DNA from: Candidatus Vogelbacteria bacterium RIFOXYD1_FULL_46_19
Lineage (GTDB): Bacteria > Patescibacteriota > Minisyncoccia > Phycocordibacterales > XYD1-FULL-46-19
Assembly (NCBI GenBank): GCA_001824825.1
Contig: MHTK01000002.1
Span: forward strand, 6,020-70,019
Reading direction: 5' to 3'
DNA length: 64,000 bases
The stretch's first letter is position 1; each line of letters opens with the position of its first letter. This document shows positions 1,065 through 41,179 of this stretch, in pieces. The notes under the pieces are model-generated. The model saw only the letters and a list, made by a program, of their open reading frames with translations. It was not told the DNA's origin and did no database searches. The translations under genes were made by a program, and so were the position numbers.

Positions 1065-1065
1065 T

Positions 1066-24295: not shown

Positions 24296-24385
24296 TTAAA
24301 GAACCTTTTCGATTCCTGACCGGAAACAAATCAGTTTGTTTCTTATCGGGAATCTTTCCCTACGGGAACGGTATAGGTTTTCCAT
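24296..24385 (-). CDS. Candidate 29-aa leader uORF upstream of ABC-F (MENLYRSRRERFPIRNKLICFRSGIEKVL)
   Basis: The ATG is preceded by AGGTGA at -6. It lies in the 240-nt leader between tRNA-His and the ABC-F start and contains a perfect 8-bp hairpin (GAAACAAA-ctga-TTTGTTTC). This is a speculative call. Confidence 0.25.
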   Translation of the reverse strand: MENLYRSRRERFPIRNKLICFRSGIEKVL

Positions 24386-24486
24386 TTTTTCACCTAACGG
24401 CTCAAAAATATGGAAGAACCTTTTCGATTCCCGATGGGCACTGATTTACCCAAAAAGAAAAACCCCTAGATAGAGGTTTTTCTTTT

Positions 24487-24562
24487 TGGGGTGCCCATCG
24501 GGAATCGAACCCGAATTAGAGGTTCCACAAACCTCTGTGTTAACCGTTACACCATGGGCACC
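24487..24562 (-). tRNA. tRNA-His (GTG), with G-1 and encoded CCA
   Basis: Hand-folded cloverleaf: acceptor GTGCCCA/TGGGCAC, anticodon stem GAGGT/ACCTC, loop TTGTGGA, T-loop TTCGATT, extra 5' G and discriminator C. Confidence 0.85.
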
Positions 24563-24630
24563 ATGTTTAATAAATGGTATGGAGTATTGAATCAATATCC
24601 TATACTAAATACCCCCATACACCCCACCCC

Positions 24631-25188
24631 CTACTCATACTTCGGCGGCTCCTCTTTTATACCAGACAAGTGGTTGGTAAGTCTAGCCAAAGCGTACAAT
24701 AGGCTCGATAGTCGGTTTAAGTAAGCGCGGGTATTGTCATCGATTGATCTAACTCCTTCCTCTTGCACCGCCACTACTCGTCGTTCAGCCCGGCGAGCCA
24801 AGGTCCGCGCGTAATCGAAATGGGCCGCCAGTTCTGTCCCCCCGGAAATGAAAAAGGTGTTAATAGGTGGCATTAGTTTTTCAATTTCATTAATTAAGGT
24901 TTCAGTGGCCACCACTTTGTCCCGACTTATTTTTTTATCCGCTCCGGCTAGCTCGGCTTGTACAATAAACAAATTTTGCTGGGTCTGGTGGACGAGTTCA
25001 TGGACCGGAACATTGTCCGGCGGTACAGCGAAGCCCGCTCGAGCTTTTTCCTTACAAATTCCTAAAAATGAGTTAATCTCATCCAAAGTACCGAGAGCCT
25101 CCGCGATACCGGAACTTTTTGATACCCGCTGGTCACAACCAAAAGTCTTGGTTGTACCCCCATCGCCTTTACCAGTGAACAATGCCAT
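24631..25188 (-). CDS. ATP:cob(I)alamin adenosyltransferase, PduO/MMAB type
   Basis: 185 aa with an N-terminal TGKGDGGTT motif and the Cob_adeno_trans fold signature (VSKSSGIAEALGTLDEINS). Confidence 0.8.
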   Translation of the reverse strand: MALFTGKGDGGTTKTFGCDQRVSKSSGIAEALGTLDEINSFLGICKEKARAGFAVPPDNVPVHELVHQTQQNLFIVQAELAGADKKISRDKVVATETLINEIEKLMPPINTFFISGGTELAAHFDYARTLARRAERRVVAVQEEGVRSIDDNTRAYLNRLSSLLYALARLTNHLSGIKEEPPKYE

Positions 25189-25279
25189 AAAATCTAGTTT
25201 AGCAAAAAATGGGTAAAAAGAAACCGCTTCCGAGAATGATTATTTCAAACTCGAAAGCGGTAATCTATTAGCACCGCCA

Positions 25280-25552
25280 CTAGACCCCCGGGAGCAGTAG
25301 CTGAAACCCCAGGAAAGACTCCAATTGGGGCCAGCTATGTTTCCGAATGGTGGGACGACGAGACCCAACTTTCGTGCCAGCCCCCTCGATCACCTGACCG
25401 AAGAGAAGGGGTCGGCGGTCGGCTGGAATTTTCCCGCCCCGACGGTAAACGACATTGTTCACCGCCTGTCGCTCGCTTGAAGCCCAGGTATTACCCTGGA
25501 ATTTTACGAGTTGGCCGTCTTTTTCATAGACGGCGTAAAGTTCCCTTTTCAC
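25280..25552 (-). CDS. Hypothetical small protein
   Basis: 90 aa ORF with no motif. Its coding status is uncertain. Confidence 0.3.
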   Translation of the reverse strand: MKRELYAVYEKDGQLVKFQGNTWASSERQAVNNVVYRRGGKIPADRRPLLFGQVIEGAGTKVGSRRPTIRKHSWPQLESFLGFQLLLPGV

Positions 25553-25794
25553 AAAACCTCCTTGGCCACGGAAAGCCGTTTAGAAATCCAACGAATCTTC
25601 TCTTATTATACCATAGTTAATATATAAAGCAAGGAGCTCGGGAGAGGACTTTCCCCCAACGGGGGCTGGTACTTTTCGTTTCATTCGCTTAACAGCTCAT
25701 TCTTATCGAAAAGTCTTTCAAGTCCCCACGCGACTAAAGCAGTTTAGTCGCTTCCCGAGCACAAATAAAAGCACCCGGTAGGTGCTTTTATTTG

Positions 25795-25876
25795 TGCTCG
25801 GGAGAGGACTTGAACCTCCACGCCTTTCGGCACTGGTACCTCATACCAGCGTGTATACCAATTTCACCACCCGAGC
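25795..25876 (-). tRNA. tRNA-Leu (GAG), long variable arm, CCA not encoded
   Basis: Acceptor GCTCGGG/CCCGAGC, anticodon stem CTGGT/ACCAG with loop ATGAGGT, variable arm GCC-GAAA-GGC and T-loop TTCAAGT. Confidence 0.8.
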
Positions 25877-25947
25877 ATTTACACGACTTATTGTAAGGAA
25901 ATCAGAGCAAAAAACAAGCCGGCGGAGCCGGCTTGTTTTTTGTTTGA

Positions 25948-26451
25948 TTATTTGGTTTCAGTTTCGTCCGTAGATTCAAGAGCCTCAGAAGAACTTGCTT
26001 CAGTTTGATCGGCAGTTACTACTTCCACTTCCGGCTCAATCGCCTCTTCTTCCATTGCCACCTCATCATCAGTGTCTCCCACGCTGGCCTTGGTACCCAC
26101 TACCTGCTTCATGCGACGGCGGATTTCCTTAGCCGCCTTGTCCCTAATATAGTAAAGCTTAGACCGGCGAACTTTAGACTGCTTCACCACCTCAATCTTA
26201 TCGATCATCGGCGAATACAGCGGAAAAATTTTTTCCATTCCTACCCCACTGGCCACTTTACGAACCGTAAAAGTCGAACCAGCTTCGTGGCCATGCTTAA
26301 CGGCAATTACCAACCCTTCAAAAATCTGAATACGAGTTTTGCCTTTTTCTTGAATCTTTTGGTGGACCCGCACCGTACTACCAGGAACCACTTTAACCTT
26401 GGCTCTTTTGTCAGTATCAATAGGTGAAATTTTAAATATAGGTGCTTGCAT
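25948..26451 (-). CDS. rplS: 50S ribosomal protein L19 with acidic C-terminal extension
   Basis: L19 core ([37 protein letters not shown]) followed by an approximately 45 aa Glu/Asp-rich tail. Confidence 0.9.
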
Positions 26452-26463
26452 AACAGCGAAAGT

Positions 26464-27201
26464 TTAGCACGAGCCCCGAAGATTATCAAGGGCGACTGTC
26501 ATATCCTGGGGTAAGTCCGCCTCCAGGGTCACCTTTTGGCCCCCTAAGAGCGCAATCTGAAGCTTAGCCGCGTGCAGAGCTTGTCGCTTTAACCCCAAGG
26601 CTTCGGTAGGCTTGTTCTGGGCGTATAAGTGGTCACCTACAATCGGGTGCTGTAGGGCCTTAAAATGGGCCCGAAGCTGGTGAGTGCGGCCAGTCTCGGG
26701 CTTGGCCTCCACCAAAGAGTAGCCGGAAAAAGTTTCTAGAACTTTAAAAATGGTGCGGGCCGAACGTAAATGGCTAGCGGCCTTAGGGCTTGCCACTCGC
26801 AGGCGCGGGTCGCGTTTACTCCGACCAATTGGCAGATCGATTACTTTTTCTTCTTCCGGGTTGGCAAAAACCCCGTGGACAATAGCCAGATAGGTTTTTT
26901 TCACCAACCGATTCTTAAACTGCTGTTTTAAGTATTGGAAACTGGGCTCATTTTTGGCAATCACCATTACCCCGCTGGTATCGCGGTCCAGGCGGTGAAC
27001 AATCCCCGGTCGGGGAATCTCCCGGCCGTCTGGCATTTTCGCCGGTTCACCCACCTCCAGCGTATCCGGAAACCGGCCAATAACCCAGTCAGCTAAGGTT
27101 AACTCCGGCCGGCGGCCATCAGAGTGCACCGCGAGACCAGCCGGCTTGTCGATAGCCACCGTATTATCGTCCTCAAAGATTATGGTCGGTTCCAGATTCA
27201 T
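26464..27201 (-). CDS. RluA-family pseudouridine synthase
   Basis: Catalytic HRLDRDTSG motif. The start was chosen at MNLEPTIIFEDD; the ORF track extends 12 codons further upstream. Confidence 0.85.
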   Translation of the reverse strand: MNLEPTIIFEDDNTVAIDKPAGLAVHSDGRRPELTLADWVIGRFPDTLEVGEPAKMPDGREIPRPGIVHRLDRDTSGVMVIAKNEPSFQYLKQQFKNRLVKKTYLAIVHGVFANPEEEKVIDLPIGRSKRDPRLRVASPKAASHLRSARTIFKVLETFSGYSLVEAKPETGRTHQLRAHFKALQHPIVGDHLYAQNKPTEALGLKRQALHAAKLQIALLGGQKVTLEADLPQDMTVALDNLRGSC

Positions 27202-27248
27202 TCTTGATAAAGTAATACAAATACGGTATTGTAGCAATGTTACAAGCT

Positions 27249-27322
27249 GCGCGCTTAGCTCAGTTGGCTAGAGCATCTCGTTTACACCGAGAGGGTCGGG
27301 GGTTCGAGTCCCTCAGCGCGCA
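27249..27322 (+). tRNA. tRNA-Val (TAC), CCA not encoded
   Basis: Acceptor GCGCGCT/AGCGCGC, D-arm GCTC-AGTTGGCTA-GAGC, anticodon stem TCTCG/CGAGA with loop TTTACAC, and T-loop TTCGAGT. Confidence 0.85.
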
Positions 27323-27326
27323 CAAG

Positions 27327-27352
27327 AAAAGGCTGCTTCGGCAGCTTTTTAT
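27327..27352 (+). terminator. Rho-independent terminator after tRNA-Val
   Basis: GGCTGC-ttcg-GCAGC hairpin followed by TTTTTATT. Confidence 0.7.
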
Positions 27353-27475
27353 TGTGCGCACTAGGAAGTGCACTGCTGCACTTCCGTGAGGGACTCGAAA
27401 GGAGTTTCGTTATCAAGCACCTGCCAAAGGTGCCTTGATCGAAACTCACCAGCCCCCGTAGGGGGAGAGTCCCTC
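27353..27475. repeat. tRNA-Val 3'-flanking module: hairpin-interrupted inverted copy of the tRNA 3' end, hairpins, degenerate direct copy of the T-arm
   Basis: GTGCGCAC (27354-61) plus a 26-nt hairpin insert plus GAGGGACTCGAA (27388-99) is the reverse complement of the tRNA-Val 3' 22 nt, split at the acceptor/T-stem junction. GAGTCCCTC recurs at 27466-74. Confidence 0.6.
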
Positions 27476-27655
27476 GATTCCCAAAATCAAAAGCCCAAAG
27501 CTTTCGCTTCAGGACTTTTGATTTTACAGCAACGCTGAGAGACTCGAACCAAGTTTCCACGAAGCCTGATTTTTTACTCGAGTTATTTTGCTTGTCGCCT
27601 TCGCGATCCTTCTGGTGGACTGCATCACGCCGTAGGTTCGCAGTAGCGAACCTAC

Positions 27656-27825
27656 GGCGGAGGGGGCTAGATTCTAAACTTACAGTTTCAGTCCCCTTGT
27701 TGGATAAATTTTTCGTCCTTCGGACTTAAATTTATGCTCAACAAAGCTTCGAATCCCTCCTTCCGCTTTGCGAAACCGTCCTTCAGACGGCTTCCGCAAA
27801 AAAGCTTTCGGGTCTCGCTTTTTTG
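27656..27825. repeat. tRNA-Ser 3'-flanking module: degenerate direct copy of the tRNA 3' end plus trailer hairpin
   Basis: GGCGGAGGGGGCTAGATTCTAAACT (27656-80) matches TGCGGAGGGGGCGAGATTCGAACTCG of the gene (27824-49). There is a hairpin CGCAAAAAAGC...GCTTTTTTGCG at 27796-27830 and a perfect 12-bp hairpin at 27612-27643. Confidence 0.6.
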
Positions 27826-27912
27826 CGGAGGGGGCGAGATTCGAACTCGCGATGCCCTTGCGGACATGCTGGTTTTCAAGACCAGTGCTTTAAACCACTC
27901 AGCCACCCCTCC
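27826..27912 (-). tRNA. tRNA-Ser (TGA), long variable arm, CCA not encoded
   Basis: Acceptor GGAGGGG/CCCCTCC, anticodon stem CTGGT/ACCAG with loop CTTGAAA, an 18-nt variable arm and T-arm GCGAG-TTCGAAT-CTCGC. Confidence 0.8.
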
Positions 27913-27960
27913 AAACAACCAGCGATATTAACGCCGATTGAATTTAACTTATGCTTAAAC

Positions 27961-28284
27961 CTAAACCGAACTAGTAGTGTTGTGCTCGGCACTCACTGTC
28001 TCACTCGAAGAAACTTGAGCTGGCGTTGGTACTGACTGCTGCGTAGTCACTGGCCTGGCTGATGTTTTCCAACCACTAAAAAATTTGGCCACAAACACCA
28101 GGTAAATTATTTCTAAGATACCAGCGGTTTGTAAAATCAGCATGGCAATATACCAGCCCTTATCCCCGCGGCGCGCGGCTTGCCACAAAGCCAAACCCTT
28201 CCACACTGTGGACCACACAATTAAAACCAGTATCACCCCCCAAAAAAGCGAAGCAAAAACTAAAATGTCGTTGGGATTTTCCAT
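27961..28284 (-). CDS. Small membrane protein (two TM helices) with Ser/Thr-rich tail, hypothetical
   Basis: 107 aa hydrophobic ORF with coding-like composition. Confidence 0.45.
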   Translation of the reverse strand: MENPNDILVFASLFWGVILVLIVWSTVWKGLALWQAARRGDKGWYIAMLILQTAGILEIIYLVFVAKFFSGWKTSARPVTTQQSVPTPAQVSSSETVSAEHNTTSSV

Positions 28285-28380
28285 AACTAAATACTAGCAG
28301 TTTCCCTCAACAAATCAACAGCCTATTTTCAACTACCTCTCATACTAGATCAGCCAGAACTGATGCTATATACTGGTTTA

Positions 28381-28767
28381 ATGCGCTTACTTGGAATTGA
28401 TTATGGATCCAAAAAAATCGGCCTGGCCCTCTCCGACTCCACCGGACGCTTTGCCTCCCCGCTAGAGGTAATACCAAGCTCGCTGACCACCGCCGAAACT
28501 ATTGCCAAAATTTGTCAGCAAGAGGAAGTAACCAAAATCGTGATAGGCCACTCCTTAAATTATGCCAACGAGCCCAACTTGATTGTGGCTGATAGCGAGA
28601 AACTGGCCGAGAAACTACGAGTCTTAACCGGACTAGAAGTAATTTTTGAGCCAGAAGTCCTAACCACTCGCGAAGCCGAAAGAACAGTAGGAAAAGATGA
28701 GCTACTCGACGCTAGGGCGGCTGCTTTAATTTTAAAAAGTTATATTGATCGCCACCACCATGACTGA
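28381..28767 (+). CDS. ruvX: Holliday-junction resolvase-like RNase H-fold protein RuvX/YqgF
   Basis: LGIDYGSKKIGLALSD N-terminal motif. The start was moved to the internal Met (MRLLGIDYG). Confidence 0.8.
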   Translation: MRLLGIDYGSKKIGLALSDSTGRFASPLEVIPSSLTTAETIAKICQQEEVTKIVIGHSLNYANEPNLIVADSEKLAEKLRVLTGLEVIFEPEVLTTREAERTVGKDELLDARAAALILKSYIDRHHHD

Positions 28768-29356
28768 AAAATTAAATATTTATAAAGAAAAAATGCGCAG
28801 CTGGGCCAACAACCGCGCCGACCATAAACAGACCAGCTGGTGGCTGGCCCTTCTCTCTTTTTCCGAAAGCTCTTTTTTTCTAGTACCGCCAGATGTTTTT
28901 TTGATCGGGATTTTAATGACTAGTCGGCGTTTTGCCTACTACGCTTTTATTACTACTATTTCTTCCGTTTTAGGCGGGGCCTTTGGTTACTTGATCGGGA
29001 TATTCTTTTTTGACACCATCGGCCAAACTTTAGTCGACCTTTATGGCCTACAAGATGAAATGGCTAAAGTCGGACAGCTCTTTAACAATAACGCCCTTGT
29101 CGCTATTTTCCTGTCAGCTTTTACACCCATTCCCTACAAAATATTCACTATCTCGGCCGGCTTTTTCCATATTAACTTTATAATTTTTATGCTGGCCTCC
29201 CTCCTGGGCCGCGGTTTACGATTTTTCCTTGAAGCTTACGCGATGAAACTATGGGGTAAAACTGTAGGTAAAATGATTTACCACTACTTTAACTTATTTA
29301 CTTTCATTGTCGGGGCTTTGGTGGTTTTGGGTATTTTCTACTTTTACTACTTTTAA
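28760..29356 (+). CDS. DedA/YqaA (SNARE-associated, VTT domain) membrane protein
   Basis: Polytopic protein with VTT-domain-like motifs (FLVPPDVFLIGI...). The start was chosen at MTEKLN, overlapping the ruvX stop. Confidence 0.68.
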   Translation: MTEKLNIYKEKMRSWANNRADHKQTSWWLALLSFSESSFFLVPPDVFLIGILMTSRRFAYYAFITTISSVLGGAFGYLIGIFFFDTIGQTLVDLYGLQDEMAKVGQLFNNNALVAIFLSAFTPIPYKIFTISAGFFHINFIIFMLASLLGRGLRFFLEAYAMKLWGKTVGKMIYHYFNLFTFIVGALVVLGIFYFYYF

Positions 29357-29436: not shown

Positions 29437-29508
29437 GCCCTTGTAGTTCAATGGATAGAACAGCGGACTTCTAAGCCGTTAATGGGGGTTCGATTCCCTC
29501 CAGGGGCA
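29437..29508 (+). tRNA. tRNA-Arg (TCT) probable; one A·G mismatch at the loop-closing pair of the anticodon stem
   Basis: Acceptor GCCCTTG/CAGGGGC, D-arm GTTC-AATGGATA-GAAC, anticodon loop CTTCTAA and T-loop TTCGATT. CCA is not encoded. Confidence 0.65.
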
Positions 29509-29509
29509 C

Positions 29510-29553
29510 AAAATAAAATTTCACAGGATTATATTCCTGTGAAATTTTATTTT
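29510..29553 (+). terminator. Perfect 19-bp hairpin terminator after tRNA-Arg(TCT)
   Basis: AAAATAAAATTTCACAGGA-ttatat-TCCTGTGAAATTTTATTTT. Confidence 0.6.
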
Positions 29554-30100
29554 GTGCCCCTGAGCAAGCAAACTGCTTGGCTTGCGTGAGGGAATCGAAA
29601 GACTTTTCGTTACCAAGCACCTGATAAAGGTGACTTGGTCGAAAAGTACCTGCCCGCCATCGCTATGCTCAGGCATTGGCAGGCGGGCCAGCGAGTGTAG
29701 CTCGAGATTCCCTCTAGAACTTGGCGTCCGGGAATCGAAGAAGCTGAGCTTGTCGCAACGAGGCTGTAGGCCGAAGTGAGACGCGAAGCCTGTACTGTTC
29801 CTGCTGTGCCCGCTAGAGCTTTAGCGTAAGCGGGTAATGAAAGATTCCCGATGTGTGTAAAGGAACCGAAAGACTTTTCGCTGCCGAAACTTATCGCAGT
29901 GAGCGTAGCGAAACGAGATGTGAAGCCTGTACCGTTTAGGTTTTACTCTCCTTGGCTCGGAAATGAGAAATATTACTTTCTCATTTCACTCGCTCTACAT
30001 CAGCAATAAAAACGAAAGCCGCTTAGGGGTTAACCAAAGCGGCTGAATCACATTTGATGATATATAAACCAAGGTCGGACCTTGGGAAAGAAATTGGGGG
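29554..30100. repeat. Expanded tRNA-Arg(TCT) 3'-flanking repeat field (split inverted 3'-end copy, multiple T-arm fragments, repeated ~100-nt units, many hairpins), non-coding
   Basis: GTGCCCCTG (29554-62) plus a 25-nt hairpin plus GAGGGAATCGAA (29588-99) is the exact reverse complement of the tRNA 3' 21 nt, split at the acceptor/T junction. ATTCCCTC, GGGAATCGAA and GATTCCCGA fragments follow. There are two GAAGCCTGTAC(T/C)GTT-containing repeat units at 29780-29940. 710 bp contain no ORF longer than 65 aa. Confidence 0.55.
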
Positions 30101-30220: not shown

Positions 30221-31396
30221 CTAACCTCGAACTTGCATTCTTTGGAATTCTCGCTTGAAGCCGTCATCAGGGTCGTCCACCTTGGATGAAGGTAGCTGAA
30301 TTACGGCCAGTTTGCCATTTCCGTCGGCTTTTTCTTCAATCCTCCTCTGCTCGCGCCGACGACGATTCCTTTCAAACTGTTGAGGTGATGCCGATTGCCA
30401 CACTCCTCGATCATCTTGGTAAACGACTTCTCCGTTCATTAGGGGATATTGATTACCCTCAGAGTCAGTATATACATGATCCTGCACCACAGTTTCCAAC
30501 TCTGCCAATTTTGCCATTTGTTCCTCCACCTCGACTTTCTTTGCTTCTAGTTCTTGGTGGAGGCGCAACTTTTCAGTTGCTATACGAGATGTTTCTTCTC
30601 TCCCTTCTCGCAGTTTTGAGTTAACATCCCGTAAGCGCTGGTGGGCAAGTTCTGTCACATGAACTCGGCTGAGTTTGGGTCGACCTGAGGACTGGTGATT
30701 CTCTGCTCCAAAGGAAGATTGCGCCGGTTCACGGCGCCACCAGGCCACCACTAGTAACGAAAGTACCAACAACAGCCAAACTAGGCCAGTGGTAAGATTT
30801 TGTTCAAACCAGCTTACCAGGCCGATCTTTTTTTGAACCGAAGCCGATTGTAGTTGCAACAGACTCAAGGCCTGCTCCAGTTTTCCATTAACTACTACCA
30901 TCTCCTCCTGGAGCTGTTGTATGTCGGCCATCCCTTTCGCGACAGCCGGAGTGAGTTTTTGAACCACACTAGCCGAGACTTGTTCAACCGACTCGTTACC
31001 AAGCGTAGTGCTCGTGGCATTTTGGAGACTCTCGATCATTTTCACAATCCGATCGAGTTTCTCAGGAATAACAGGGATGGGAGAAATCTCAACCTCGGCG
31101 GTAGGCACCGTGGCAACTACAAAGTCAGCTGGTACTGGCCGCTCGTACGTTCCTGCCAACATTTTGTAGAATGCCTTTTCGGCGTTCTTCATGTGATGCA
31201 GTTTAGCAAAAGCAACCTGGTACTCTTCGGGGTCTGGCCAAACCTCGCGAACAAGGTCATTGGCCTGATAATCTTGGATTACCCAGGGGCCTTGGCCCTG
31301 GACCATTTCAAACTCTCCGAGGCCAAGATCAGCCTCGGCGGTTACTGCTGTCGCCATGACCAGCAGCACCATTAGCATCCATGCGACGCGCTTCAT
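30221..31396 (-). CDS. Secreted/membrane-spanning coiled-coil protein, hypothetical (anomalously GC-rich)
   Basis: Signal peptide MKRVAWMLMVLLVMATAVTAEA (start chosen there), one central TM helix and a C-terminal charged coiled-coil. GC is about 50% against about 40% background. Confidence 0.5.
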   Translation of the reverse strand: MKRVAWMLMVLLVMATAVTAEADLGLGEFEMVQGQGPWVIQDYQANDLVREVWPDPEEYQVAFAKLHHMKNAEKAFYKMLAGTYERPVPADFVVATVPTAEVEISPIPVIPEKLDRIVKMIESLQNATSTTLGNESVEQVSASVVQKLTPAVAKGMADIQQLQEEMVVVNGKLEQALSLLQLQSASVQKKIGLVSWFEQNLTTGLVWLLLVLSLLVVAWWRREPAQSSFGAENHQSSGRPKLSRVHVTELAHQRLRDVNSKLREGREETSRIATEKLRLHQELEAKKVEVEEQMAKLAELETVVQDHVYTDSEGNQYPLMNGEVVYQDDRGVWQSASPQQFERNRRRREQRRIEEKADGNGKLAVIQLPSSKVDDPDDGFKREFQRMQVRG

Positions 31397-31575
31397 AGTA
31401 AGACACCTCCTTTCTATATCTTCCACCCAAAATCGATAATGTCTAAAACTACAGGTTTTAGACATAAGCTTCACATCATCTATGTGTAAAAGAACTCCGC
31501 TGTTACCAACGATTTCTACTTTAGAAACTTACATAAAATTAGAAATATGTCAATACCACACCAGACTACCCGTTA

Positions 31576-33826: not shown

Positions 33827-33898
33827 GCTCTCATAGTTCAATGGATAGAACGCTAGCTTGCGGAGCTGGTAATCCAGGTTCGAATCCTGGTGAGAGCA
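33827..33898 (+). tRNA. tRNA with anticodon GCG as read (Arg, atypical G34)
   Basis: Acceptor GCTCTCA/TGAGAGC, D-arm GTTC-AATGGATA-GAAC, anticodon stem CTAGC/GCTGG with loop TTGCGGA, and T-arm CCAGG-TTCGAAT-CCTGG. Confidence 0.55.
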
Positions 33899-34072
33899 CA
33901 CGAATGAAATGGGTGGATCTGACCAGGATTCGAACTCGAAAGGGGTCGGGAAAACTGTAGTTTTCCCGTGGAGGAAGGCAGAGCGAAGCTCGTCGGAAAA
34001 CCGTCCGCGTGTCGCTGAAGCTTTAGCGGAGGCACAGGGTTTCCGAAAGGTGAGATTCCTGATGAGAGCACC
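33899..34072. repeat. tRNA-Arg(GCG) 3'-flanking module
   Basis: Inverted T-arm copy CCAGGATTCGAA (33923-34) is followed by CTCGAAAGG and then the hairpin GGGAAAACTGTAGTTTTCCC. A degenerate direct copy GAGATTCCTGATGAGAGCACC lies at 34052-72. Confidence 0.55.
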
Positions 34073-34197
34073 ACTCTATTCGTACAGTACCTAGACTAAA
34101 ATTTGGCGACGGCCAAATTTTGAGTCGAAAGAAAATCCTGGCAAGCCCCCCCTACCAGTAGCTAATTACCAACCTAGTAGGTAGCAAACAAAAAACC

Positions 34198-34227
34198 TGT
34201 CAGTGACAGGTTTTTTGTTGGAGTTTA
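34198..34227. terminator. Bidirectional terminator downstream of rpsT
   Basis: AAAAAACCTGTCA-g-TGACAGGTTTTTT. Confidence 0.65.
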
Positions 34228-34238
34228 AGTTTTTTAAT

Positions 34239-34514
34239 TTAGACGATCGCTTTAGCTTTCTTTATCATTTTAGCCAAACGTGACTTTTTGCGAGCGGCAG
34301 TATTTTTTTTGATTACTCCCCGCTTAGCCGCTTTGTCGATAGCTTGATAGGCAGCCGAGAGGCCCGCTTCGGCGCCGGCAACATCCTTATTAATAGTTAG
34401 TACTTTTTTAACAGATTTTACTTGTTCACGCATCGCTTTTTTGCGAGCATCGTTAAAAACTCGCTTGCGAGCACCTTTGCGCAATTCCTTTTTGGCTGAA
34501 GTCGTGATAGGCAT
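34239..34514 (-). CDS. rpsT: 30S ribosomal protein S20
   Basis: MPITTSAKKELRKGARKRVFNDARK... matches the S20 family. The start was moved to the internal Met. Confidence 0.85.
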   Translation of the reverse strand: MPITTSAKKELRKGARKRVFNDARKKAMREQVKSVKKVLTINKDVAGAEAGLSAAYQAIDKAAKRGVIKKNTAARKKSRLAKMIKKAKAIV

Positions 34515-35233: not shown

Positions 35234-35239
35234 TTCACT

Positions 35240-36271
35240 ATGGGTCGCTTAACTATTTCAAATATTACAAATAACGAGCCGTGGCCAAATAAAGCTGAGG
35301 CCGAGGCACACTTTACCCAATCTGAGCTTTTTGGTCAGTGGCAAATTGAGCGCGGTTTTAAAGTACGCCGCTTGGTCTTAAAAGACAACGACCGGCCCAT
35401 ATTATGGTGGCAAGCCCTTACTGCTCCCCTAATAAGACGTCACACTCAAATCTATATTCCACACGGACCGATTGTTTTAGACCCCTCCGATTTGAACCCA
35501 ACTGTAATAAAGTTATTTAAAGAGGAACTCTTTAAACTGGCCCGAGAAGATAAAGCGGTCTTTGTCCGTCTTGATCCCCAAATCAAAGACTGGACCAAGA
35601 GTGCCCTAAACAAAAATGGCTTTAAGACCGCTCCGGCCTTTGCTGCCCACTCAACTCTAACCCAGCCTCGCTACGAGTGGATTATGGATTTAATCGGCAG
35701 TGAAACTGATTGGTTTAACCGTATGTCTAAAGACACACGCTACTCTATTCGTACCGCCCAGAAACGCGGCACGGTAACGGAAATCATTAACGAAAACTTA
35801 ACCAGTGAACTCAATAACTTTTACCAACTTGTCCTTGAGACCAGCAAGCGAAACAACTTCCGCCTTCACCCTAAGTCTTATTATGAAAAAGTTTTGAGTG
35901 AAACCAGCCGGAATCAGAGCGGCTTTATCGTGAAAGCCTCTTTCAACGGCATTCCCCTAGTCATGAACTTGATCACCACCGGTAGTCCCACCGCCCTTCA
36001 CGTTTTTGGTGGCTCGACGACCGTCCATCGTGACCAGCTAGCTTCCTACTTAGCTCACTGGGCCGGCTTTATTGAAGCCAAGCGCCAAGGAGCCACGACT
36101 TATAGTTTCGGCGGGATTAGTTTCGGTGAAGATCAAAATCCTTCCTGGGTGGACTTAACCGCTTTTAAACAAAAGTTCCCCGGCCACATCAAAGATTATG
36201 GCCCCTTGTATGATCTCCCTATTTCCAGGCTATGGTATTATGCCTATGTCACCGCAAAAAAATTCCGCTAA
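35240..36271 (+). CDS. FemAB-family peptidoglycan peptide-bridge aminoacyltransferase-like protein
   Basis: 343 aa with a FemABX-like two-GNAT-lobe architecture. The call rests on overall sequence resemblance only. Confidence 0.55.
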   Translation: MGRLTISNITNNEPWPNKAEAEAHFTQSELFGQWQIERGFKVRRLVLKDNDRPILWWQALTAPLIRRHTQIYIPHGPIVLDPSDLNPTVIKLFKEELFKLAREDKAVFVRLDPQIKDWTKSALNKNGFKTAPAFAAHSTLTQPRYEWIMDLIGSETDWFNRMSKDTRYSIRTAQKRGTVTEIINENLTSELNNFYQLVLETSKRNNFRLHPKSYYEKVLSETSRNQSGFIVKASFNGIPLVMNLITTGSPTALHVFGGSTTVHRDQLASYLAHWAGFIEAKRQGATTYSFGGISFGEDQNPSWVDLTAFKQKFPGHIKDYGPLYDLPISRLWYYAYVTAKKFR

Positions 36272-36274
36272 ATT

Positions 36275-37564
36275 ATGGGCCAACTTAAACTCCAACTAAA
36301 AAAAATTACCCCGACTTGGATGCTGTCACTGTACCATTATAAGATGTCCCTGGTGGGCGCCCTGCGTTATGGTTTCCCGTCGCGAAACATAAAAGTAGTG
36401 GGCGTCACCGGCACCAAGGGTAAGTCTAGCACTGTCGAAATTTTAAACGCTATTTTAGAAGAGGCCGAGTTTACTACCGCCTTAGTGTCAACAGTCCGGT
36501 TTAAAGTGGGAAATGACTCCGAGCCCAATCGGCTTAAAATGACCACCCCAGGACGTTTCTTTCTGCAAAAGAAAATTCGAGAAGCAGTAGAAGCCGGTTG
36601 TGACTATATTATTATCGAGATGAGTTCGGAAGGGGTTAAACAGTGGCGCCACAAATTTATTACCCTTAACGCTCTCTTGGTTACCAACTTGTCGCCCGAG
36701 CATATTGAATCGCATGGATCCTACGCCAACTACCGCGAAGCTAAACTAAAAATAGCCAAAGCTTTGACTCGCTCGTCGAAACCCCACAAAGTTTTAGTCA
36801 CCAATGGTGACGATCCAGAACTTGAGGTTTTTCGCCAGCTTAAAAATGTGACTCAAGTCTCCACTCACCTAGTAGATGCTAGCCCTCACACTCTGCTAGC
36901 CGACGGACTTTTCTTTACATATAAAAATCAAAAAATCCAAACCAAACTGGTGGGCGAATTTAATTTGTATAATATCTTACTCGCTGTCGCTTATGCCGAA
37001 CATGAAAATGTTGATTCGGAAAAAATAAAAAAGGCTTTAGAAAAATTTACTGGTGTCCCCGGCCGGCTAGAGCTTGTCACCAGCTCCGATCCAACTTTGG
37101 CCCGACGGCAAAATTTTAAAGTAATTGTCGACTACGCCCACACCGCCGACTCCCTGAAAAAAGTTTACGAGATTTATAAAGACCATAAAATAATTGCGGT
37201 ATTGGGCGGCACCGGTGGGGGGCGAGACCGGGACCGCCGAACTATCATGGGCGGCCTGGCCAACAAGTATGCGAGCTTAGTGATTGTGACGGATGAAGAC
37301 CCTTACGACGAAGACCCACGCCAAATTGCCGAGGCAGTGGCCACCGGCGTCACCAGTACCCCTAAAAAGATCATTATGGACCGACGAGAAGCTATCCGAG
37401 TAGCACTTAAAAGTGCTACAGGCGACTCGGTGGTGATAATTACCGGCAAGGGCACCGACCCTTATATTATGAGAGCGGGTGGTACCAAAGAACTGTGGAG
37501 CGACGCCGAGGTGGCACGGGAGGAGCTGGAGATGGTACTAAAAGAACGAAGTGAACAGAAATAG
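36275..37564 (+). CDS. Mur-ligase-family protein lacking the usual N-terminal UDP-binding domain (MurT/CapB/MurE-like; substrate unresolved)
   Basis: The P-loop GVTGTKGKSST lies at residue about 45, with a Mur ligase middle domain and a C-terminal domain. Confidence 0.72.
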   Translation: MGQLKLQLKKITPTWMLSLYHYKMSLVGALRYGFPSRNIKVVGVTGTKGKSSTVEILNAILEEAEFTTALVSTVRFKVGNDSEPNRLKMTTPGRFFLQKKIREAVEAGCDYIIIEMSSEGVKQWRHKFITLNALLVTNLSPEHIESHGSYANYREAKLKIAKALTRSSKPHKVLVTNGDDPELEVFRQLKNVTQVSTHLVDASPHTLLADGLFFTYKNQKIQTKLVGEFNLYNILLAVAYAEHENVDSEKIKKALEKFTGVPGRLELVTSSDPTLARRQNFKVIVDYAHTADSLKKVYEIYKDHKIIAVLGGTGGGRDRDRRTIMGGLANKYASLVIVTDEDPYDEDPRQIAEAVATGVTSTPKKIIMDRREAIRVALKSATGDSVVIITGKGTDPYIMRAGGTKELWSDAEVAREELEMVLKERSEQK

Positions 37565-37572
37565 CTTAGATA

Positions 37573-37726
37573 CCCCGCCTCGCTTTTTACCTTTTCAATT
37601 TAAAGTAAGAGGTAACCCAGTGTGGTGTGGTAGAATTTTAGCCAACACGCTTCGCGCGTAACGTAAGGAATGGCCTATACGGCCCCGCGTGTTGAAAAAA
37701 TAATTAACAGTAAAAGCGAGGCGGGG
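37573..37726. repeat. 15-bp perfect inverted repeats (CCCCGCCTCGCTTTT / AAAAGCGAGGCGGGG) flanking a 124-nt structured segment
   Basis: Read directly from the sequence. There is an inner inverted repeat CAACACGC...GCGTGTTG. It lies immediately upstream of the AT-rich GIY-YIG gene. Confidence 0.5.
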
Positions 37727-37803
37727 CGATGATTTTATAAAGCTCGCCTTCCCCGCTAAAAATTCACCCTGTTTAGTAAACTTTAAATTTTTTCAAAAAT
37801 ATT

Positions 37804-38058
37804 ATGTACTTTACATACGTTCTCCAATCTCAACTGGATAAAAAATTTTACACAGGTTTTACAAAAAATTTAAAGTTAAGATTTGACGATCACTGTGATG
37901 GTTTAGTAAATTCTACTAGCAGTAGACGACCCTTAAAACTAATTTATTATGAGGCTTGTTTGAATCAACATGACGCTACCTATAGAGAAAAATATTTAAA
38001 AACCACATATGGAAAACGTTTTATTAGAAATAGAGTCAAATCTTACTTAACAGGGTAA
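37804..38058 (+). CDS. Stand-alone GIY-YIG nuclease-domain protein (84 aa), AT-rich
   Basis: YVLQSQLDKKFYTGFTKNLKLRFDDH matches the GIY-YIG core. GC is about 33%, well below the flanks. Confidence 0.62.
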   Translation: MYFTYVLQSQLDKKFYTGFTKNLKLRFDDHCDGLVNSTSSRRPLKLIYYEACLNQHDATYREKYLKTTYGKRFIRNRVKSYLTG

Positions 38059-38940
38059 ATGCCCGAACTACCCGAAGTTGAAACGGTGGCCCGTGACCTC
38101 AACCGTGTTTTAAAAAACCACGTTATTAAAAAGGTTGTGGTCCGTGTGCCCAAAATGATTTTACCGCTCTCGGCGGAAGATTTTGGTAGTGGCTTAAAAA
38201 CTTGGTCCATCGAGAAAGTCTCCCGCCGAGCCAAAATTATCGTAATAAATTTATCTAAACCCAAAGCTAAAGCCAAGAAATTTTTACTGATTCACCTCAA
38301 AATGACCGGCCAACTTATTTGGATGCCTAAAATCGGCCAAGCAGTAATCGGCGGCCACCCCCAGCCCGGCGGTGGTCATAATTTGCCCCACAAACACACC
38401 CACGCCGAATTCCACTTCCAAGACGGGTCAGTTTTGTATTTCAACGATATGCGTAAATTTGGCTGGCTTAAATTGGTGACTGAATCAGAAAAAGAAATCA
38501 TTCTTAGCCCGCACGGCGTGGAGCCACTGGCTAAAGATTTTAGTTTGACCATTTTTACCAACCTAATCACCAAGTACCCCAACCGCACTCTTAAGCACAC
38601 CCTGCTAGACCAAAAGCTGATCGCCGGCTTAGGCAACATTTATGTGGATGAAGCCTGCTTTAAGACCGGTGTTCTACCCACGCGTCCGGTTCATACTTTA
38701 TCAAGATCAGATTTAACAAAACTTCACCAAGAGATTGTGGCTGTTTTAAAACTCTCCATCAAAAAGAAAGGGACTTCGGCCCGCAATTATGTCCGAGCCG
38801 ACGGCACCAAAGGTGGCTTTGTCCCCTACTTAAATGTGTACGGCCGCGCGGGCTTAGCCTGCAAACAATGTGGCAACCTAATTTCGAAAACTAAACATGC
38901 CGGCCGGGGCACTCATTTTTGCAGTAAATGTCAAAAATGA
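38059..38940 (+). CDS. mutM: Formamidopyrimidine-DNA glycosylase (Fpg/MutM)
   Basis: MPELPEVETV N-terminus, H2TH domain and a C-terminal zinc finger (CKQCG...CSKCQ). Confidence 0.9.
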   Translation: MPELPEVETVARDLNRVLKNHVIKKVVVRVPKMILPLSAEDFGSGLKTWSIEKVSRRAKIIVINLSKPKAKAKKFLLIHLKMTGQLIWMPKIGQAVIGGHPQPGGGHNLPHKHTHAEFHFQDGSVLYFNDMRKFGWLKLVTESEKEIILSPHGVEPLAKDFSLTIFTNLITKYPNRTLKHTLLDQKLIAGLGNIYVDEACFKTGVLPTRPVHTLSRSDLTKLHQEIVAVLKLSIKKKGTSARNYVRADGTKGGFVPYLNVYGRAGLACKQCGNLISKTKHAGRGTHFCSKCQK

Positions 38941-39013
38941 TATAGACCAAAGGGCCCTCATTTTTTCGTCACAGTTCGAGATAGAAAACATTAATTTACT
39001 ATGCTTTAATAGT

Positions 39014-39137
39014 AAAAGCCGACACAAATTCACCTTTAGTTTAACCAACTGAAGTTACCCTAAGCCTAGAACCGCCAACTAGGGACGGGCCCTGATACGG
39101 GGCAGGAAGGAGGGTGTTGAATTTAGTGTCGGCTTTT
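39014..39137. repeat. 18-bp near-perfect inverted repeats (AAAAGCCGACACAAATTC / GAATTTAGTGTCGGCTTTT) flanking an 87-nt segment
   Basis: Read directly. The 3' arm is followed by TTTTTAT, so it can act as a long-stem terminator for mutM. Confidence 0.45.
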
Positions 39138-39202
39138 TATCTACCCATAATTTCAAAAAACCTAACCACACTAAGTGACTAGTTGTTATAGAAAGTGTCA
39201 GA

Positions 39203-39245
39203 AATAAAAAAATGAAACCCCCGATTCGTCAAAACGAATCGGGGG
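39203..39245 (-). terminator. Rho-independent terminator for the 39254..39865 gene
   Basis: CCCCCGATTCGT-caaa-ACGAATCGGGGG hairpin followed on the minus strand by a T run. Confidence 0.6.
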
Positions 39246-39253
39246 CTAATTCT

Positions 39254-39865
39254 CTACTTGCGAAAAGCGAGAAACCGGCAATTGCCACCCCAGCCATCTT
39301 CGAACCAACCCAAGCTCAAGACGCGCCGCGAGTCATTCCCGTCGAGGAAAGGCACACGACGGTCACCACACACCTCCGCACTAGAGCCAAGAGCGACAAC
39401 CAGAAACTCTTGTTGAACCTCGGGGCAAGTCGCCCCAAAAGCAAGCAATTCCGCGAGTGTGCCGGGGCGCAAACCACGTTTCTCGAGCTCGGCCAGCACC
39501 ACCTCGGACGACCTATCATGACCGAAGTGGACCAGCTCAGGCTCAAGCTCCACTTGCCCTTCCCCCTCCACTTCGAAAAGATCCGGGGTAATGTTGAGGT
39601 CGACCAAGTCGTAACAACCAGCGATCACCATCTGCTCGAGAGTCATAGTATAATCCACGACAATCTTGCAAATTTTCGCCACCAGACCAAGTAGCTGACG
39701 AAACGCAAAGCGATCCACCCTCTTCAACTTTCCCACCACGGCCGCCTCGTAGAGATCAGCTTGAAGTCCAGTTTGAACAAGGTCGTCACAAGCCTCTTCG
39801 GTGAGGCCTTTATGATCAGCCAAATTTATGAGATGTTTTGCATTGCCCAAAATCACTATACTCAT
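39254..39865 (-). CDS. Hypothetical protein, anomalously GC-rich (~52%)
   Basis: 203 aa ORF with its own terminator and no recognisable motif. Confidence 0.42.
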   Translation of the reverse strand: MSIVILGNAKHLINLADHKGLTEEACDDLVQTGLQADLYEAAVVGKLKRVDRFAFRQLLGLVAKICKIVVDYTMTLEQMVIAGCYDLVDLNITPDLFEVEGEGQVELEPELVHFGHDRSSEVVLAELEKRGLRPGTLAELLAFGATCPEVQQEFLVVALGSSAEVCGDRRVPFLDGNDSRRVLSLGWFEDGWGGNCRFLAFRK

Positions 39866-40049
39866 AGAATTATCTCCCAGTGTTACTCTATTTAGTAATA
39901 GTAGTTTAAGTTATCCTTGGTGGAAAAACCGCCAGAGAACTTATCTGCATAAGATAATACACTTATTTTAATACCTTATCAAGATACACCCAGCTCAGAA
40001 TATCCCTATTCATAGCCGCATTCTTAGCAATTTTTGAGTCTACTTAAGT

Positions 40050-40355
40050 CTATTTCACCTTTCGCTCCAACATTATCACCCTCTTTTCCAGACGGGCAAA
40101 TTCTTGTCGATCCACTTTTTGTTTCGTTTCATATTTAATATCTGCCAGGTCTAACAGTATCTGCCCCATCCGTTCGGTATGACTATCTAATTTTTTCTCG
40201 ACAACACTAAATTTAGTCTCCACCTTTTGGTTTAATCCTAACAGCCCCTCACCGAATATTTTGAACTGCGAACGCAGATCTTCCAACACGACCGTATATT
40301 GGTCTTTCTTAGGTGCTCCTTTATTGGCCTTGGATTCTGGAGTTTTCTTCTTCAT
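40050..40355 (-). CDS. Small coiled-coil protein, hypothetical
   Basis: 101 aa, Lys/Glu-rich with a heptad-like periodicity. Confidence 0.45.
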   Translation of the reverse strand: MKKKTPESKANKGAPKKDQYTVVLEDLRSQFKIFGEGLLGLNQKVETKFSVVEKKLDSHTERMGQILLDLADIKYETKQKVDRQEFARLEKRVIMLERKVK

Positions 40356-40376
40356 AAATTGATTATACTCCCAGAC

Positions 40377-40844
40377 TTAAATCAGGCCAAACAAGGCTAC
40401 CCCGGCCGCCACTGAAACATTGAGCGACTCTTTCTTCCCCCTCATGGGGATTTCGGTAATAAGATCGCATTTATTTAAAACTGACGTGGGTAAACCCTTA
40501 GTTTCTTCACCTAAGACTAAAGCCCAACTACCCTTTAGCTTTAGTTTCCGGTAATCGACTGAGTGGTCCGTTTGCTCTAAAGCCACCGTTTTAAGGCCGG
40601 CTTTTTTAAGTTTGACCAGAATGGAGGCAATGGTTTTATGATAAGTCCAGGAAACAGATTTTTCCGCCCCTAAGGCTGTTTTAGCAATTCGCGAATTCAC
40701 CCGACCAAACCGGTCGACAGGGCATGGGGTGACACCGATAAGAAATATTTTTACTATCCCCACCGCGTCCGCCGTCCGAAAAATCGCCCCCACATTGTAG
40801 GCTGAACGGATGTTATAAAGAATTAAAAAAACTTTTCGTTTCAT
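40377..40844 (-). CDS. SpoU/TrmH-family RNA 2'-O-methyltransferase (TrmL-like)
   Basis: 155 aa with SPOUT motifs (YNVGAIFRTADAVG, LVLGEE, the IPM.G...SLNVSVAAGV region). Confidence 0.8.
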   Translation of the reverse strand: MKRKVFLILYNIRSAYNVGAIFRTADAVGIVKIFLIGVTPCPVDRFGRVNSRIAKTALGAEKSVSWTYHKTIASILVKLKKAGLKTVALEQTDHSVDYRKLKLKGSWALVLGEETKGLPTSVLNKCDLITEIPMRGKKESLNVSVAAGVALFGLI

Positions 40845-40884
40845 CTTTTGAAACTATCAGGAATTAAACTAGAAGTAAACTTGA

Positions 40885-41106
40885 TGCCCCGTGCAAGATT
40901 CTGTCCCTACCTGCCCGCCAGCGCCTAAGCCAGCAGGGCGACTCGCCTGCCATGCAAGGTACGAACGGGTACCCCGCCCTGTGCACAGGGCGGGGTCTTT
41001 CGAATCCTGACGCAAGCCAAGTCCTAAAGCCGTCCGGACTCGGAGTAGGCCAGTTGACTTGCTCACGGGGCACAAAATAAAAACGCCTAGCGGCGTCTTC
41101 ATTTTG
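40885..41106. repeat. tRNA-Lys 3'-flanking module
   Basis: Direct copy TGCCCCGTGCAAGATTC (40885-901) matches 16 of 17 positions of the gene's TGCCCCGTGCAGGATTC (41107-23). There is an inverted T-arm fragment TTTCGAATCCTG (40999-41010), a hairpin CCGCCCTGTG-ca-CAGGGCGG, and a 15-bp perfect inverted repeat CACGGGGCACAAAAT (41064-78) / ATTTTGTGCCCCGTG (41101-15) that includes the tRNA acceptor end. Confidence 0.6.
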
Positions 41107-41179
41107 TGCCCCGTGCAGGATTCGAACCTGCGACCGTTCGCTTAAAAGGCGACTGCTCTACCAACTGAGCTAACGGGGC
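41107..41179 (-). tRNA. tRNA-Lys (TTT), CCA not encoded
   Basis: Acceptor GCCCCGT/ACGGGGC, D-arm GCTC-AGTTGGTA-GAGC, anticodon loop CTTTTAA and T-arm GCAGG-TTCGAAT-CCTGC. It closely resembles canonical bacterial tRNA-Lys. Confidence 0.8.

Follow-up and report, generated by a model that had tools for sequence, protein, structure and literature searches.

The DNA examined here is a 64,000-nt stretch (the window, by which its whole length is meant) of contig MHTK01000002.1 from Candidatus Vogelbacteria bacterium RIFOXYD1_FULL_46_19, a member of the Patescibacteria, and our subject is the small, structured, non-coding modules that lie directly 3′ of its tRNA genes. ARAGORN and Rfam concordantly placed seven tRNA genes in the interval 24.4–41.2 kb, the same seven named in an earlier note made on this DNA from its letters alone, and inspection of the 420 nt 3′ of each, in tRNA orientation, revealed one common plan, on the tRNA strand, in all seven cases. 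With A denoting the T-loop/T-stem 3′ strand, B the acceptor 3′ strand, and A′ and B′ their reverse complements, the order reads tRNA[A B], terminator, B′, hairpin hpA, A′, core, [A (B)], and then the original flank, the tRNA itself being intact; each module is thus a cassette with the tRNA end directly repeated on either side and an inverted copy of that end inside. The terminator (A-tract, hairpin and T-tract) is present in all window modules except that of tRNA-Arg(GCG). B′ is the reverse complement of the acceptor 3′ strand, the discriminator and one extra base, and A′ that of the T-stem 3′ strand and the T loop as far as T54. The inverted copy is usually interrupted at the T-stem/acceptor junction by hpA, a conserved but optional 9-bp hairpin with a CTGC loop that is lacking in the His module, where B′ and A′ are contiguous over 19 nt. 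The first core hairpin (hp1) accounts for the motifs CTTTTCG and CGAAAG, which are its two strands and its junction, a second hairpin (hp2) follows, and the closing sense copy holds the T-stem 3′ strand and, optionally, the acceptor strand. Modules measure ~90–220 nt and encode no protein. Six of the seven tRNA genes do not encode CCA, ending in discriminator-C and then an A run; tRNA-His alone ends in ..CACCCCA.

Cores fall into at least three families, which are common to different tRNAs while the arms are fitted to the local one. Family I reads GAAAG-hp1-(G)TACC-hp2 with a GTA triloop, then GA; its covariance model (R1), built from 86 copies and run on the window and 100 loci, recovers five of the window’s seven modules, those of Val, Arg-TCT, Leu, Lys and His. 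Divergent modules also fit this family, in the form GAA(A/G)(A/G)-hp1-(G/A)TAC(C/T)-hp2(GTA)-GA, namely the His and Ser modules of the window and the “type 3” core of the L001 His module and of window 29720–29853 (L-numbers denote loci from relatives or other Patescibacteria). In family II, ..GAGGC-GGGGTCG-hairpin-YGTGACC lies between A′ and the sense copy, with 11 of 18 pairs covarying. Family III is the Arg-GCG core.

Behind tRNA-His(GTG) (24487–24561, minus strand; Rfam 63 bits), the module at 24345–24486 (−) matches R1 over 24329–24464 (E=2e-7) and comprises the terminator (24449–24486), the contiguous 19-nt antisense B′A′ without hpA (24423–24441), hp1 (24375–24422), hp2 with its GTA loop (24356–24369) and the sense copy GATTCCCGAT (24345–24354). 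Extra units, partial or complete, follow the His, Val and Arg-TCT modules; that behind His is a partial second unit (24273–24322, −) containing CAGGAATCGAAAAGGTTCTTT, which repeats the first unit’s start. The family I module (25636–25793, −; R1 96.7 bits) of tRNA-Leu(GAG) (25794–25876, −) runs through the terminator (25763–25793), B′ (25753–25762), hpA (25730–25752), A′ (25717–25729), hp1 (25671–25714) and hp2 (25653–25666) to a sense copy of T stem and acceptor that is exact at 16/16 positions (25636–25651). For tRNA-Val(TAC) (27249–27323, +), the family I module at 27324–27475 (+; R1 111 bits) consists of the terminator (27324–27353), B′ (27354–27361), hpA (27363–27385), A′ (27386–27399), hp1 (27402–27447), whose closing stem GAGTTTCG/CGAAACTC covaries with ACTTTTCG/CGAAAAGT, hp2 (27452–27465) and the sense copy (27468–27475), and it is followed by a degenerate second unit (27483–27548, +) with a terminator-like hairpin (27483–27525) and a contiguous antisense copy, GCTGAGAGACTCGAA (27534–27548). 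The divergent family I module of tRNA-Ser(TGA) (gene 27825–27912, module 27657–27824, both −), which R1 does not reach, carries the terminator (27798–27824), B′ with a hairpin (27770–27797), B′A′ (27748–27766), hp1 (27695–27747), hp2 as AAACT-GTA-AGTTT (27676–27688) and the sense copy GAATCTAGCCCCCTCCGC (27657–27674), directly after which stands the hairpin CGTAGGTTCGC..GCGAACCTACG (27631–27656, −).

An array of units lies behind tRNA-Arg(TCT) (29437–29509, +). Its first, a family I module (29510–29714, +; R1 97.8 bits), contains the terminator (29510–29553), B′ (29554–29562), hpA (29563–29585), A′ (29586–29599), hp1 (29602–29647), an extra hairpin (29651–29688), hp2 (29692–29704) and the sense copy (29706–29714); unit 2 (29720–29853, +) begins within the 3′ half of hpA and has the arms CCGGGAATCGAA ... 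GATTCCCGATG, and unit 3 (29862–29940, +), with GGAACCGAAAGACTTTTCG ... GAAGCCTGTACCGTT, gives a weak covariance-model match at 29857–29912. The module of tRNA-Arg(GCG) (gene 33827–33899, module 33900–34071, both +) belongs to family III and, without a terminator, is made up of A′ (33922–33935), the core GGGGTCGGG-hairpin-CCCGTGGAGGAAGGCAG..GGAAAACCG..GGGTTTCC (33936–34053, +) and the sense copy GATTCCTGATGAGAGCAC (34054–34071). Behind it, 34072–34240 holds a degenerate further unit, in which a family II-like hairpin with a GCGACGGC loop precedes GAGTCGAAAG and AATCCTGG, and then comes a bidirectional terminator shared with rpsT. The last module, that of tRNA-Lys(TTT) (41106–41179, −), is of family I with enlarged hairpins (40885–41105, −; R1 44.9 bits, E=1e-11): terminator (41074–41105), B′ (41064–41073), long hpA (41012–41063), A′ (40999–41011), hp1 (40971–40996), hp2 region (40902–40967) and sense copy GAATCTTGCACGGGGCA (40885–40901).

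Exact repeats of the last 24 nt of each tRNA were sought in the 260 nt downstream and compared with 2000 random 260-nt windows. Inverted copies reached 19 nt for His, 10 for Leu, 13 for Val, 8 for Ser, 12 for Arg-TCT, 14 for Arg-GCG and 11 for Lys, and direct copies 9–16 nt, against values of only 4–8 nt in the 260 nt upstream. P lay between 0.003 and 0.02 in 13 of the 14 tests and was 0.065 for the Ser inverted copy, these values being conservative because the random windows contain the tRNAs and modules themselves. The 13-mer GAAAGACTTTTCG occurs perfectly three times in the window, each time within a module. Layout and repeat tests together bear out the earlier note’s claim that every one of the seven tRNAs is followed by the same kind of module with a degenerate direct copy of the tRNA end (9–16 nt exact at each locus), and the three repeats it quoted (25636/25796, 40885/41107 and 27656/27824) were verified. 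The trailer hairpin that it placed first stands, as the terminator, at six tRNAs but not at Arg-GCG, where there is no such hairpin and the core is different; the inverted copy that it described as one of the T-loop/T-arm is present but also spans the acceptor 3′ strand, the discriminator and one base.

The arms belong to the local tRNA. In a comparison of 74 module copies, A′ matched the cognate tRNA at 8.5 of 10 positions versus 6.15 for non-cognate tRNAs, and the longest exact match averaged 7.2 versus 4.45 nt for B′ and 11.2 versus 5.3 nt for the sense copy. A′ pairs with the tRNA 3′ strand at 8.26 of 9 positions versus 6.89 of 9 with the downstream sense copy, and where these two differ it agrees with the tRNA 44 times and with the sense copy 4 times; the acceptor part of the downstream copy is degenerate in most modules. 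B′ extends the terminator palindrome, an ungapped arm entering the tRNA by at least 7 nt in 33 of 63 copies; most such arms enter exactly 9 nt and end at the T-stem/acceptor junction, which is the position of hpA, about a dozen are perfect over 20–30 bp (terminator and B′ of the window Arg-TCT module form a perfect 28-bp palindrome arm extending into the tRNA), and their mismatches comprise 34 G.T and 28 A.C. B′ is the Watson-Crick complement of the 3′ strand: the Arg-TCT tRNA has the 5′ strand GCCCTTG, with a T5.G68 wobble, and its B′ reads GCCCCTG. The tRNA 5′ acceptor strand is ruled out as the source of B′, since B′ is Watson-Crick where the tRNA wobbles. A primer-binding site was also rejected, because the complementarity merely continues the terminator palindrome and includes the CCA complement only where CCA is encoded, as was a T-loop intron, the 5′ arm being antisense to the T loop (AATCGAA for the loop TTCGATT), not sense.

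The structure of the core was examined by RNAalifold and pair counting on the 86 copies, with shuffled and slid controls. Three hairpins (hpA, hp1 and hp2) are conserved, with compensatory changes at 22 of 27 pairs; pairing holds in 93.8% of cells versus 72.0% after shuffling, and the covariation score of 0.536 (0.144 shuffled) was reached by none of 500 shuffles, slid controls giving at most 0.085. GAAAG, a TT bulge, (G)TACC, the GTA triloop, the CTGC loop and GCGT are conserved unpaired motifs. A hammerhead-like three-way junction was considered and dropped (on inspection GAAA and GUA/GUC are present and the CUGANGA box is absent), and Rfam found neither self-cleaving ribozymes nor group I/II introns in the modules. 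Nor is an intrinsic terminator the whole of it: the first hairpin qualifies, yet 100–190 nt of conserved, covarying structure lie beyond.

The folded form may be a read-through RNA or single-stranded DNA, and we consider both. Mismatches in family I hairpins are G.T 38 times (2.3%) and A.C 26 times (1.6%), and in the acceptor and T stems of 164 tRNAs of the same loci 95 (4.8%) and 4 times (0.2%), respectively. No GNRA or UNCG loops were seen on inspecting the alignment, in which GTA-type triloops dominate, and GCGAAGC/GCGGAGC mini-hairpins take the terminator’s place in some copies. Covariation confined to Watson-Crick pairs is expected from templated correction of quasi-palindromes and is therefore by itself no proof of a selected RNA fold. 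Assigning the strand from the G.T excess in P1 (32 vs 10) was discounted, because decay of a C-rich sense copy alone could produce it.

Beyond the window, the core pattern GAAAGACTTTTCG-N15-45-CGAAAAGTACC (24 bases; the two strands of the first core hairpin) was sought in one genome per species and found in at least 114 loci, a lower bound, so that the counts below refer to the matches listed. All of those listed are metagenome-assembled genomes (MAGs) of Patescibacteria, from the Paceibacteria (including Nomura-, Vogel-, Lloyd-, Taylor- and Zambryskiibacteria), MAGs labelled Saccharibacteria, Peribacteria and Minisyncoccia; a scan of 2.9 million viral contigs with the same pattern gave no match. 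A same-strand tRNA end lies <200 nt upstream of 83 of the 115 matches listed, about ten more are second units of arrays, and most of the remainder stand at locus ends, behind an intron-containing tRNA or behind a tmRNA gene (L045, L060 and L061, confirmed by ARAGORN). About 20 tRNA isotypes are represented among the module-bearing loci. R1 produced 136 matches in the 100 loci, 37 of them independent of the search pattern and 27 of these 37 directly 3′ of a same-strand tRNA; only 3 matches lie on the strand opposite the tRNA. Among 70 unselected tRNAs of carrier loci (the tRNAs that recruited the loci being excluded), 23 have a family I module within 300 nt downstream. At ~200–1300 (minus strand) of L056, a module-bearing tRNA 3′ end missed by ARAGORN is preceded by group I intron motifs (..GATATAGTCC..) and probably belongs to an intron-containing gene, in line with a report that such introns are abundant in the tRNAs of Patescibacteria (PMC13011429). 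At 3834–3907 of L018, ARAGORN calls a tRNA with anticodon TTA (“tRNA-Stop”, a UAA reader) and a family I module behind it; this tRNA may act as a suppressor or point to recoding.

Relatives carry or lack modules at orthologous tRNAs, the presence/absence comparison that had been proposed as a check. Of three syntenic relatives, L001 has modules at Leu, His and Arg-GCG (there two in tandem) and none at Val, L003 at Arg-TCT and Val only, and L005 a single one, at Arg-GCG. The cassettes are dispensable, as the orthologous tRNAs without modules in relatives and the proportion of 23 in 70 unselected tRNAs indicate, and variable between relatives. The hairpin at 27631–27656 of the window recurs 3′ of a displaced tRNA-Ser 3′ fragment in L001, and the sequence after the sense copy is therefore the ancestral tRNA flank. 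In the L001 His module, B′ fits the present tRNA (GGTCGCC) while the sense copy retains the window allele (GGGCAC). Direct repeats range from ~9 to at least 44 nt, spanning the whole terminator in L069 (44 nt) and L034. Module 5′ ends vary, including B′ or starting at hpA, inside hpA (window 29720) or at A′, while 3′ ends are constant, and internal array units begin at a fixed GT-A′ boundary. Tandem units are identical in L082 (two units) and of differing core types, all with local arms, in the L051 and L091 arrays. The unit at 29720–29853 of the window is 5′-truncated and has His-matching arms and a core homologous to the tRNA-His module of L001, yet stands behind tRNA-Arg(TCT), with tRNA-His ~5 kb away. 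Core identity averages 0.72 between different tRNAs of the same genome (n=16), 0.61 between genomes for the same anticodon (n=79) and 0.58 in the background (n=2755), the same-genome excess having P=1.6e-5, and L035 and L050 show 97% identical cores on two different tRNA-Arg genes. Since paralogous cores are 81–97% identical with arms fully re-tailored, gradual mutation is excluded, and we infer that the arms were copied from the local tRNA.

Other rearrangements were seen at these loci. In L001 (5600–6100; a Vogelbacteria relative), an open reading frame (ORF) for a GIY-YIG endonuclease lies just 5′ of tRNA-Ser and a displaced, older, window-like Ser 3′ half ~60 nt downstream, which looks like allele replacement by a free-standing homing endonuclease. 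A ~220-aa ORF with weak LAGLIDADG matches sits between rplS (L19) and tRNA-Leu in L003 (11424–12083) and L005 (11301–11966) and has no counterpart in the window; LAGLIDADG ORFs also lie close to modules at three additional loci. L007 (~2500–2700) and L021 (~5100–5300) carry duplicated tRNA 5′ fragments upstream of the intact gene and an additional 3′ half downstream, so that rearrangement at such loci extends beyond the cassettes. tRNA-Val is divergent from rluA in the window (27249–27323) and L003 and co-directional with it in L001 (9865–9938) and L005, the gene therefore having been inverted or replaced between relatives.

We posit, with a probability of about one half, that the modules are non-autonomous cassettes residing within a duplicated tRNA/tmRNA 3′ end and forming a Patescibacteria-wide family, which makes miniature tRNA-targeting elements the best supported of the three readings that the earlier note had offered. 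Such cassettes would be gained, lost and moved among tRNA loci: loss and tandem amplification would proceed through the direct repeats, and for gain the near-universal T-loop sequence, which stands at both core borders as TTCGAA/GAATCC, would be the site of recombination or template switching, unless a trans-encoded enzyme is responsible. The neighbouring tRNA would act as template for B′ and the specific part of A′, which would arise, or stay in register with it, through DNA synthesis running over the terminator palindrome (quasi-palindrome correction or gene conversion) and not through slow point mutation. The conserved feature would be the fold of one strand, the tRNA-sense strand, in which B′/A′ paired to an A-B segment would reproduce the cognate acceptor/T-arm minihelix, hpA replacing the D and anticodon arms and the core standing where the T loop would be; we speculate that this minihelix serves recognition by a protein or processing enzyme. 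A more far-reaching version, which we regard as rather improbable, makes the cassettes the programmable component of a nucleic-acid-guided system, as yet undescribed, that acts specifically on tRNA/tmRNA 3′ ends. There, B′ and A′ would flank a scaffold hairpin, followed by a conserved protein-binding core, and a recombinase, nuclease or processing enzyme encoded in trans by Patescibacteria would be led to the cognate tRNA gene or transcript, the arms being copied anew from the target whenever a cassette inserts.

Several observations weigh against mobile cassettes, and some of them favour the main rival, a host-encoded dicistronic tRNA-ncRNA, which is a possible but clearly less probable reading. 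Here a promoter-less structured RNA would be made by read-through from the tRNA promoter, B′/A′ would pair with the upstream tRNA 3′ end (a long duplex and possible processing site) or with the downstream copy (a cleavable, tRNA-like minihelix), and the core would be a functional RNA; plant dicistronic tRNA-snoRNA genes (cited in PMC12045711) offer an analogy. Its strongest support comes from the G.T beside GTC:GAC in family II, invariant on the tRNA-sense strand (kept at 23 of 24 sites when the 5′ motif alone is the anchor, and in 19 of 19 copies of the alignment), and from the family III core, nearly invariant at the same tRNA-Arg(GCG) in the window, L001 and L005 with arms tracking each species’ tRNA, in genomes whose RluA is 66% (L001) and 52% (L005) identical to that of the window. 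Sense-strand folds are the more stable in 68 of 86 copies, which again fits RNA, modules are strictly co-oriented with the tRNA, and junction and loop nucleotides are conserved while stems covary. Orthologous His and tmRNA modules, too, have compensatory changes, and these, like the Arg-GCG retention, resemble the outcome of prolonged purifying selection on a function of the host; what looks like spread within a genome could also result from concerted evolution among modules already in place. Strain-level comparison found no empty and filled alleles (three extra assemblies of the organism were identical), no free or excised cassette form was seen, and no transposase, integrase or reverse transcriptase was linked to the modules, either among clustered ORFs within 3 kb at 114 loci or by Pfam among the window neighbours: around modules there is only housekeeping synteny and a few LAGLIDADG ORFs, and the window neighbours are housekeeping genes or lack a Pfam match. 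The templating of the arms is likewise inferred, not observed. Conversely, a read-through RNA has to contend with the strong intrinsic terminator between tRNA and cassette in most copies, family I helices without the RNA-type wobble asymmetry of the tRNA stems at the same loci, GTA triloops instead of GNRA/UNCG loops, the degeneracy of the downstream acceptor copy and the dispensability of the modules. Of the pre-tRNA trailer structure that the earlier note had suggested, only the transcribed trailer survives, as this rival; “organism-specific” does not, given at least 114 loci in many Patescibacteria lineages.

A SINE-like (short interspersed element-like) retroposon, in which a module RNA ending in the tRNA 3′ end and terminator is copied by a trans-acting reverse transcriptase at nicked tRNA loci, would yield target duplications and 5′-truncated copies, and the variable 5′ and constant 3′ ends, as well as a duplication that takes in the terminator, where the transcript would stop, agree with it. 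We nevertheless consider it improbable: the ORFs around the 114 loci include no reverse transcriptase, Patescibacteria are reported to lack group II introns (PMC13011429), the inner units of arrays begin at the fixed GT-A′ boundary and not randomly, and the fit of the arms to each new tRNA is left unexplained. Least probable are the attL/attR scars of integrase-mediated islands or prophages of which decay has left a few hundred nucleotides, although direct repeats of a tRNA 3′ end are the classic mark of tRNA-targeted integration, tmRNA is likewise a classic target, and the relatives have displaced tRNA fragments and homing-endonuclease genes at these loci. The interior is a multi-hairpin structure conserved and covarying phylum-wide, with the 24-nt pattern in at least 114 loci, no integrase lies nearby, and neither inverted copies nor hpA are expected of att scars. 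The milder version, of terminators with trivial T-loop similarity at chance frequency, named beforehand as an outcome that would overturn the pattern, is excluded by the cognate-arm and random-window tests; covariation and phylum-wide conservation largely refute this rival in both forms.

Comparison with known systems places the cassettes outside known kinds, since the defining feature set of none of the systems compared is found in them. Like integrative elements that target tRNA/tmRNA genes (tyrosine-integrase islands, prophages and integrative mobilizable elements, with Campbell-type attL/attR), which insert in the 3′ end, restore the gene by a replacement copy, leave the displaced 3′ end as a direct repeat before the original flank and may form arrays, the modules have a bracketing direct repeat (9–16 nt exact in the window, 44 nt in L069). 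Unlike them, they are ~100-fold smaller (90–220 nt), lack an integrase or any other gene, carry an inverted target copy and a conserved, covarying multi-hairpin core, and have repeats of variable length (9–44 nt) that may include the terminator. With repetitive extragenic palindromes (REP), bacterial interspersed mosaic elements (BIME) and miniature inverted-repeat transposable elements (MITEs) they share small size, multiple copies, lack of protein, richness in hairpins, an extragenic position just behind transcription units, Watson-Crick-only helices without wobble bias and a presumed trans-acting enzyme. Their terminal arms, however, are inconstant and match the adjacent tRNA while the cores are shared; they are strictly linked to and co-oriented with tRNA/tmRNA, without an identified parent insertion sequence or REP-associated tyrosine transposase; their duplication (~9 to at least 44 nt, no fixed length) is much longer than the typical target-site duplication of a MITE; and GTA stands in the loop of hp2, not at the hairpin foot as does the GTAG hallmark of REP/BIME. 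In folded single-strand att sites (integron attC and CTX-phi attP), an inverted repeat likewise folds one strand into a duplex that mimics the target, side branches or unpaired bases mark the strand, and a host or trans enzyme recombines; the modules differ in being known without a recombinase, in a target mimic that is the tRNA 3′ end and changes with the locus, and in cores far more elaborate than attC.

Plant dicistronic tRNA-snoRNA genes and bacterial 3′ external transcribed spacers also have a small ncRNA right behind a tRNA and dependent on its transcription or processing, but the modules are usually preceded by a terminator and hold antisense and sense copies of the tRNA end. Primer-binding sites of long terminal repeat (LTR) elements and T-box leaders similarly contain a stretch of ~19–21 nt that is complementary to one particular tRNA at its 3′ end. 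The modules, by contrast, complement gene sequence and trailer (CCA only if encoded), adjoin the tRNA gene itself and are not accompanied by a reverse transcriptase, an LTR, a specifier codon or a downstream gene under regulation; unlike T-boxes they lie 3′ of tRNAs (Val and Ser being convergent, and Arg-TCT and Arg-GCG having neighbours on the opposite strand), and they pair with the 3′ strand of acceptor and T arm, not with NCCA. Rfam 15 scans at the gathering threshold and at relaxed ones (E≤5–10), covering the window and six loci, reported tRNA only, apart from spurious miRNA-like matches to a long hairpin, and families I–III had no match even at E≤10. Full-text literature searches found no description of the modules: PMC13011429 deals with group I introns at position 35/36, and the units of the TIGR-Tas paper are 36-nt box C/D. 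We thus rate the cassettes as outside known kinds, in agreement with the statement, made from the letters alone, that no described family matches, with the proviso that these searches and Rfam 15 are no proof against prior description.

Patescibacteria (candidate phyla radiation) genomes are very small, and widespread non-coding modules are therefore unexpected in them; in carrier genomes at least one third of the sampled tRNA genes have 100–500 bp of modules behind them, and in the window all seven do. If mobile, they would represent a new way to colonise a genome’s safest sites without disruption, and arms copied from each target would pose a mechanistic puzzle, the origin of the inverted and direct target copies. 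If RNAs, they would add several new classes of RNA linked with tRNA biogenesis in a phylum that is uncultivated. In either case, their long perfect palindromes and tRNA-fragment repeats can mislead tRNA annotation, att-site and island prediction, and MAG assembly.

Two further features of the window were noted. Beside the Arg-TCT array, a 417-aa ORF (30221–31474, −) without a Pfam match has an N-terminal signal/transmembrane segment, a second transmembrane segment and a long coiled coil, and does not look like an enzyme. Between 56700 and 60900, dnaN (56734–57840, −), dnaA (58061–59422, −) and yidC (60106–60834, +) lie in a stretch of low GC content (0.32–0.36) where the cumulative GC skew switches from falling to rising, probably marking the chromosomal replication origin.

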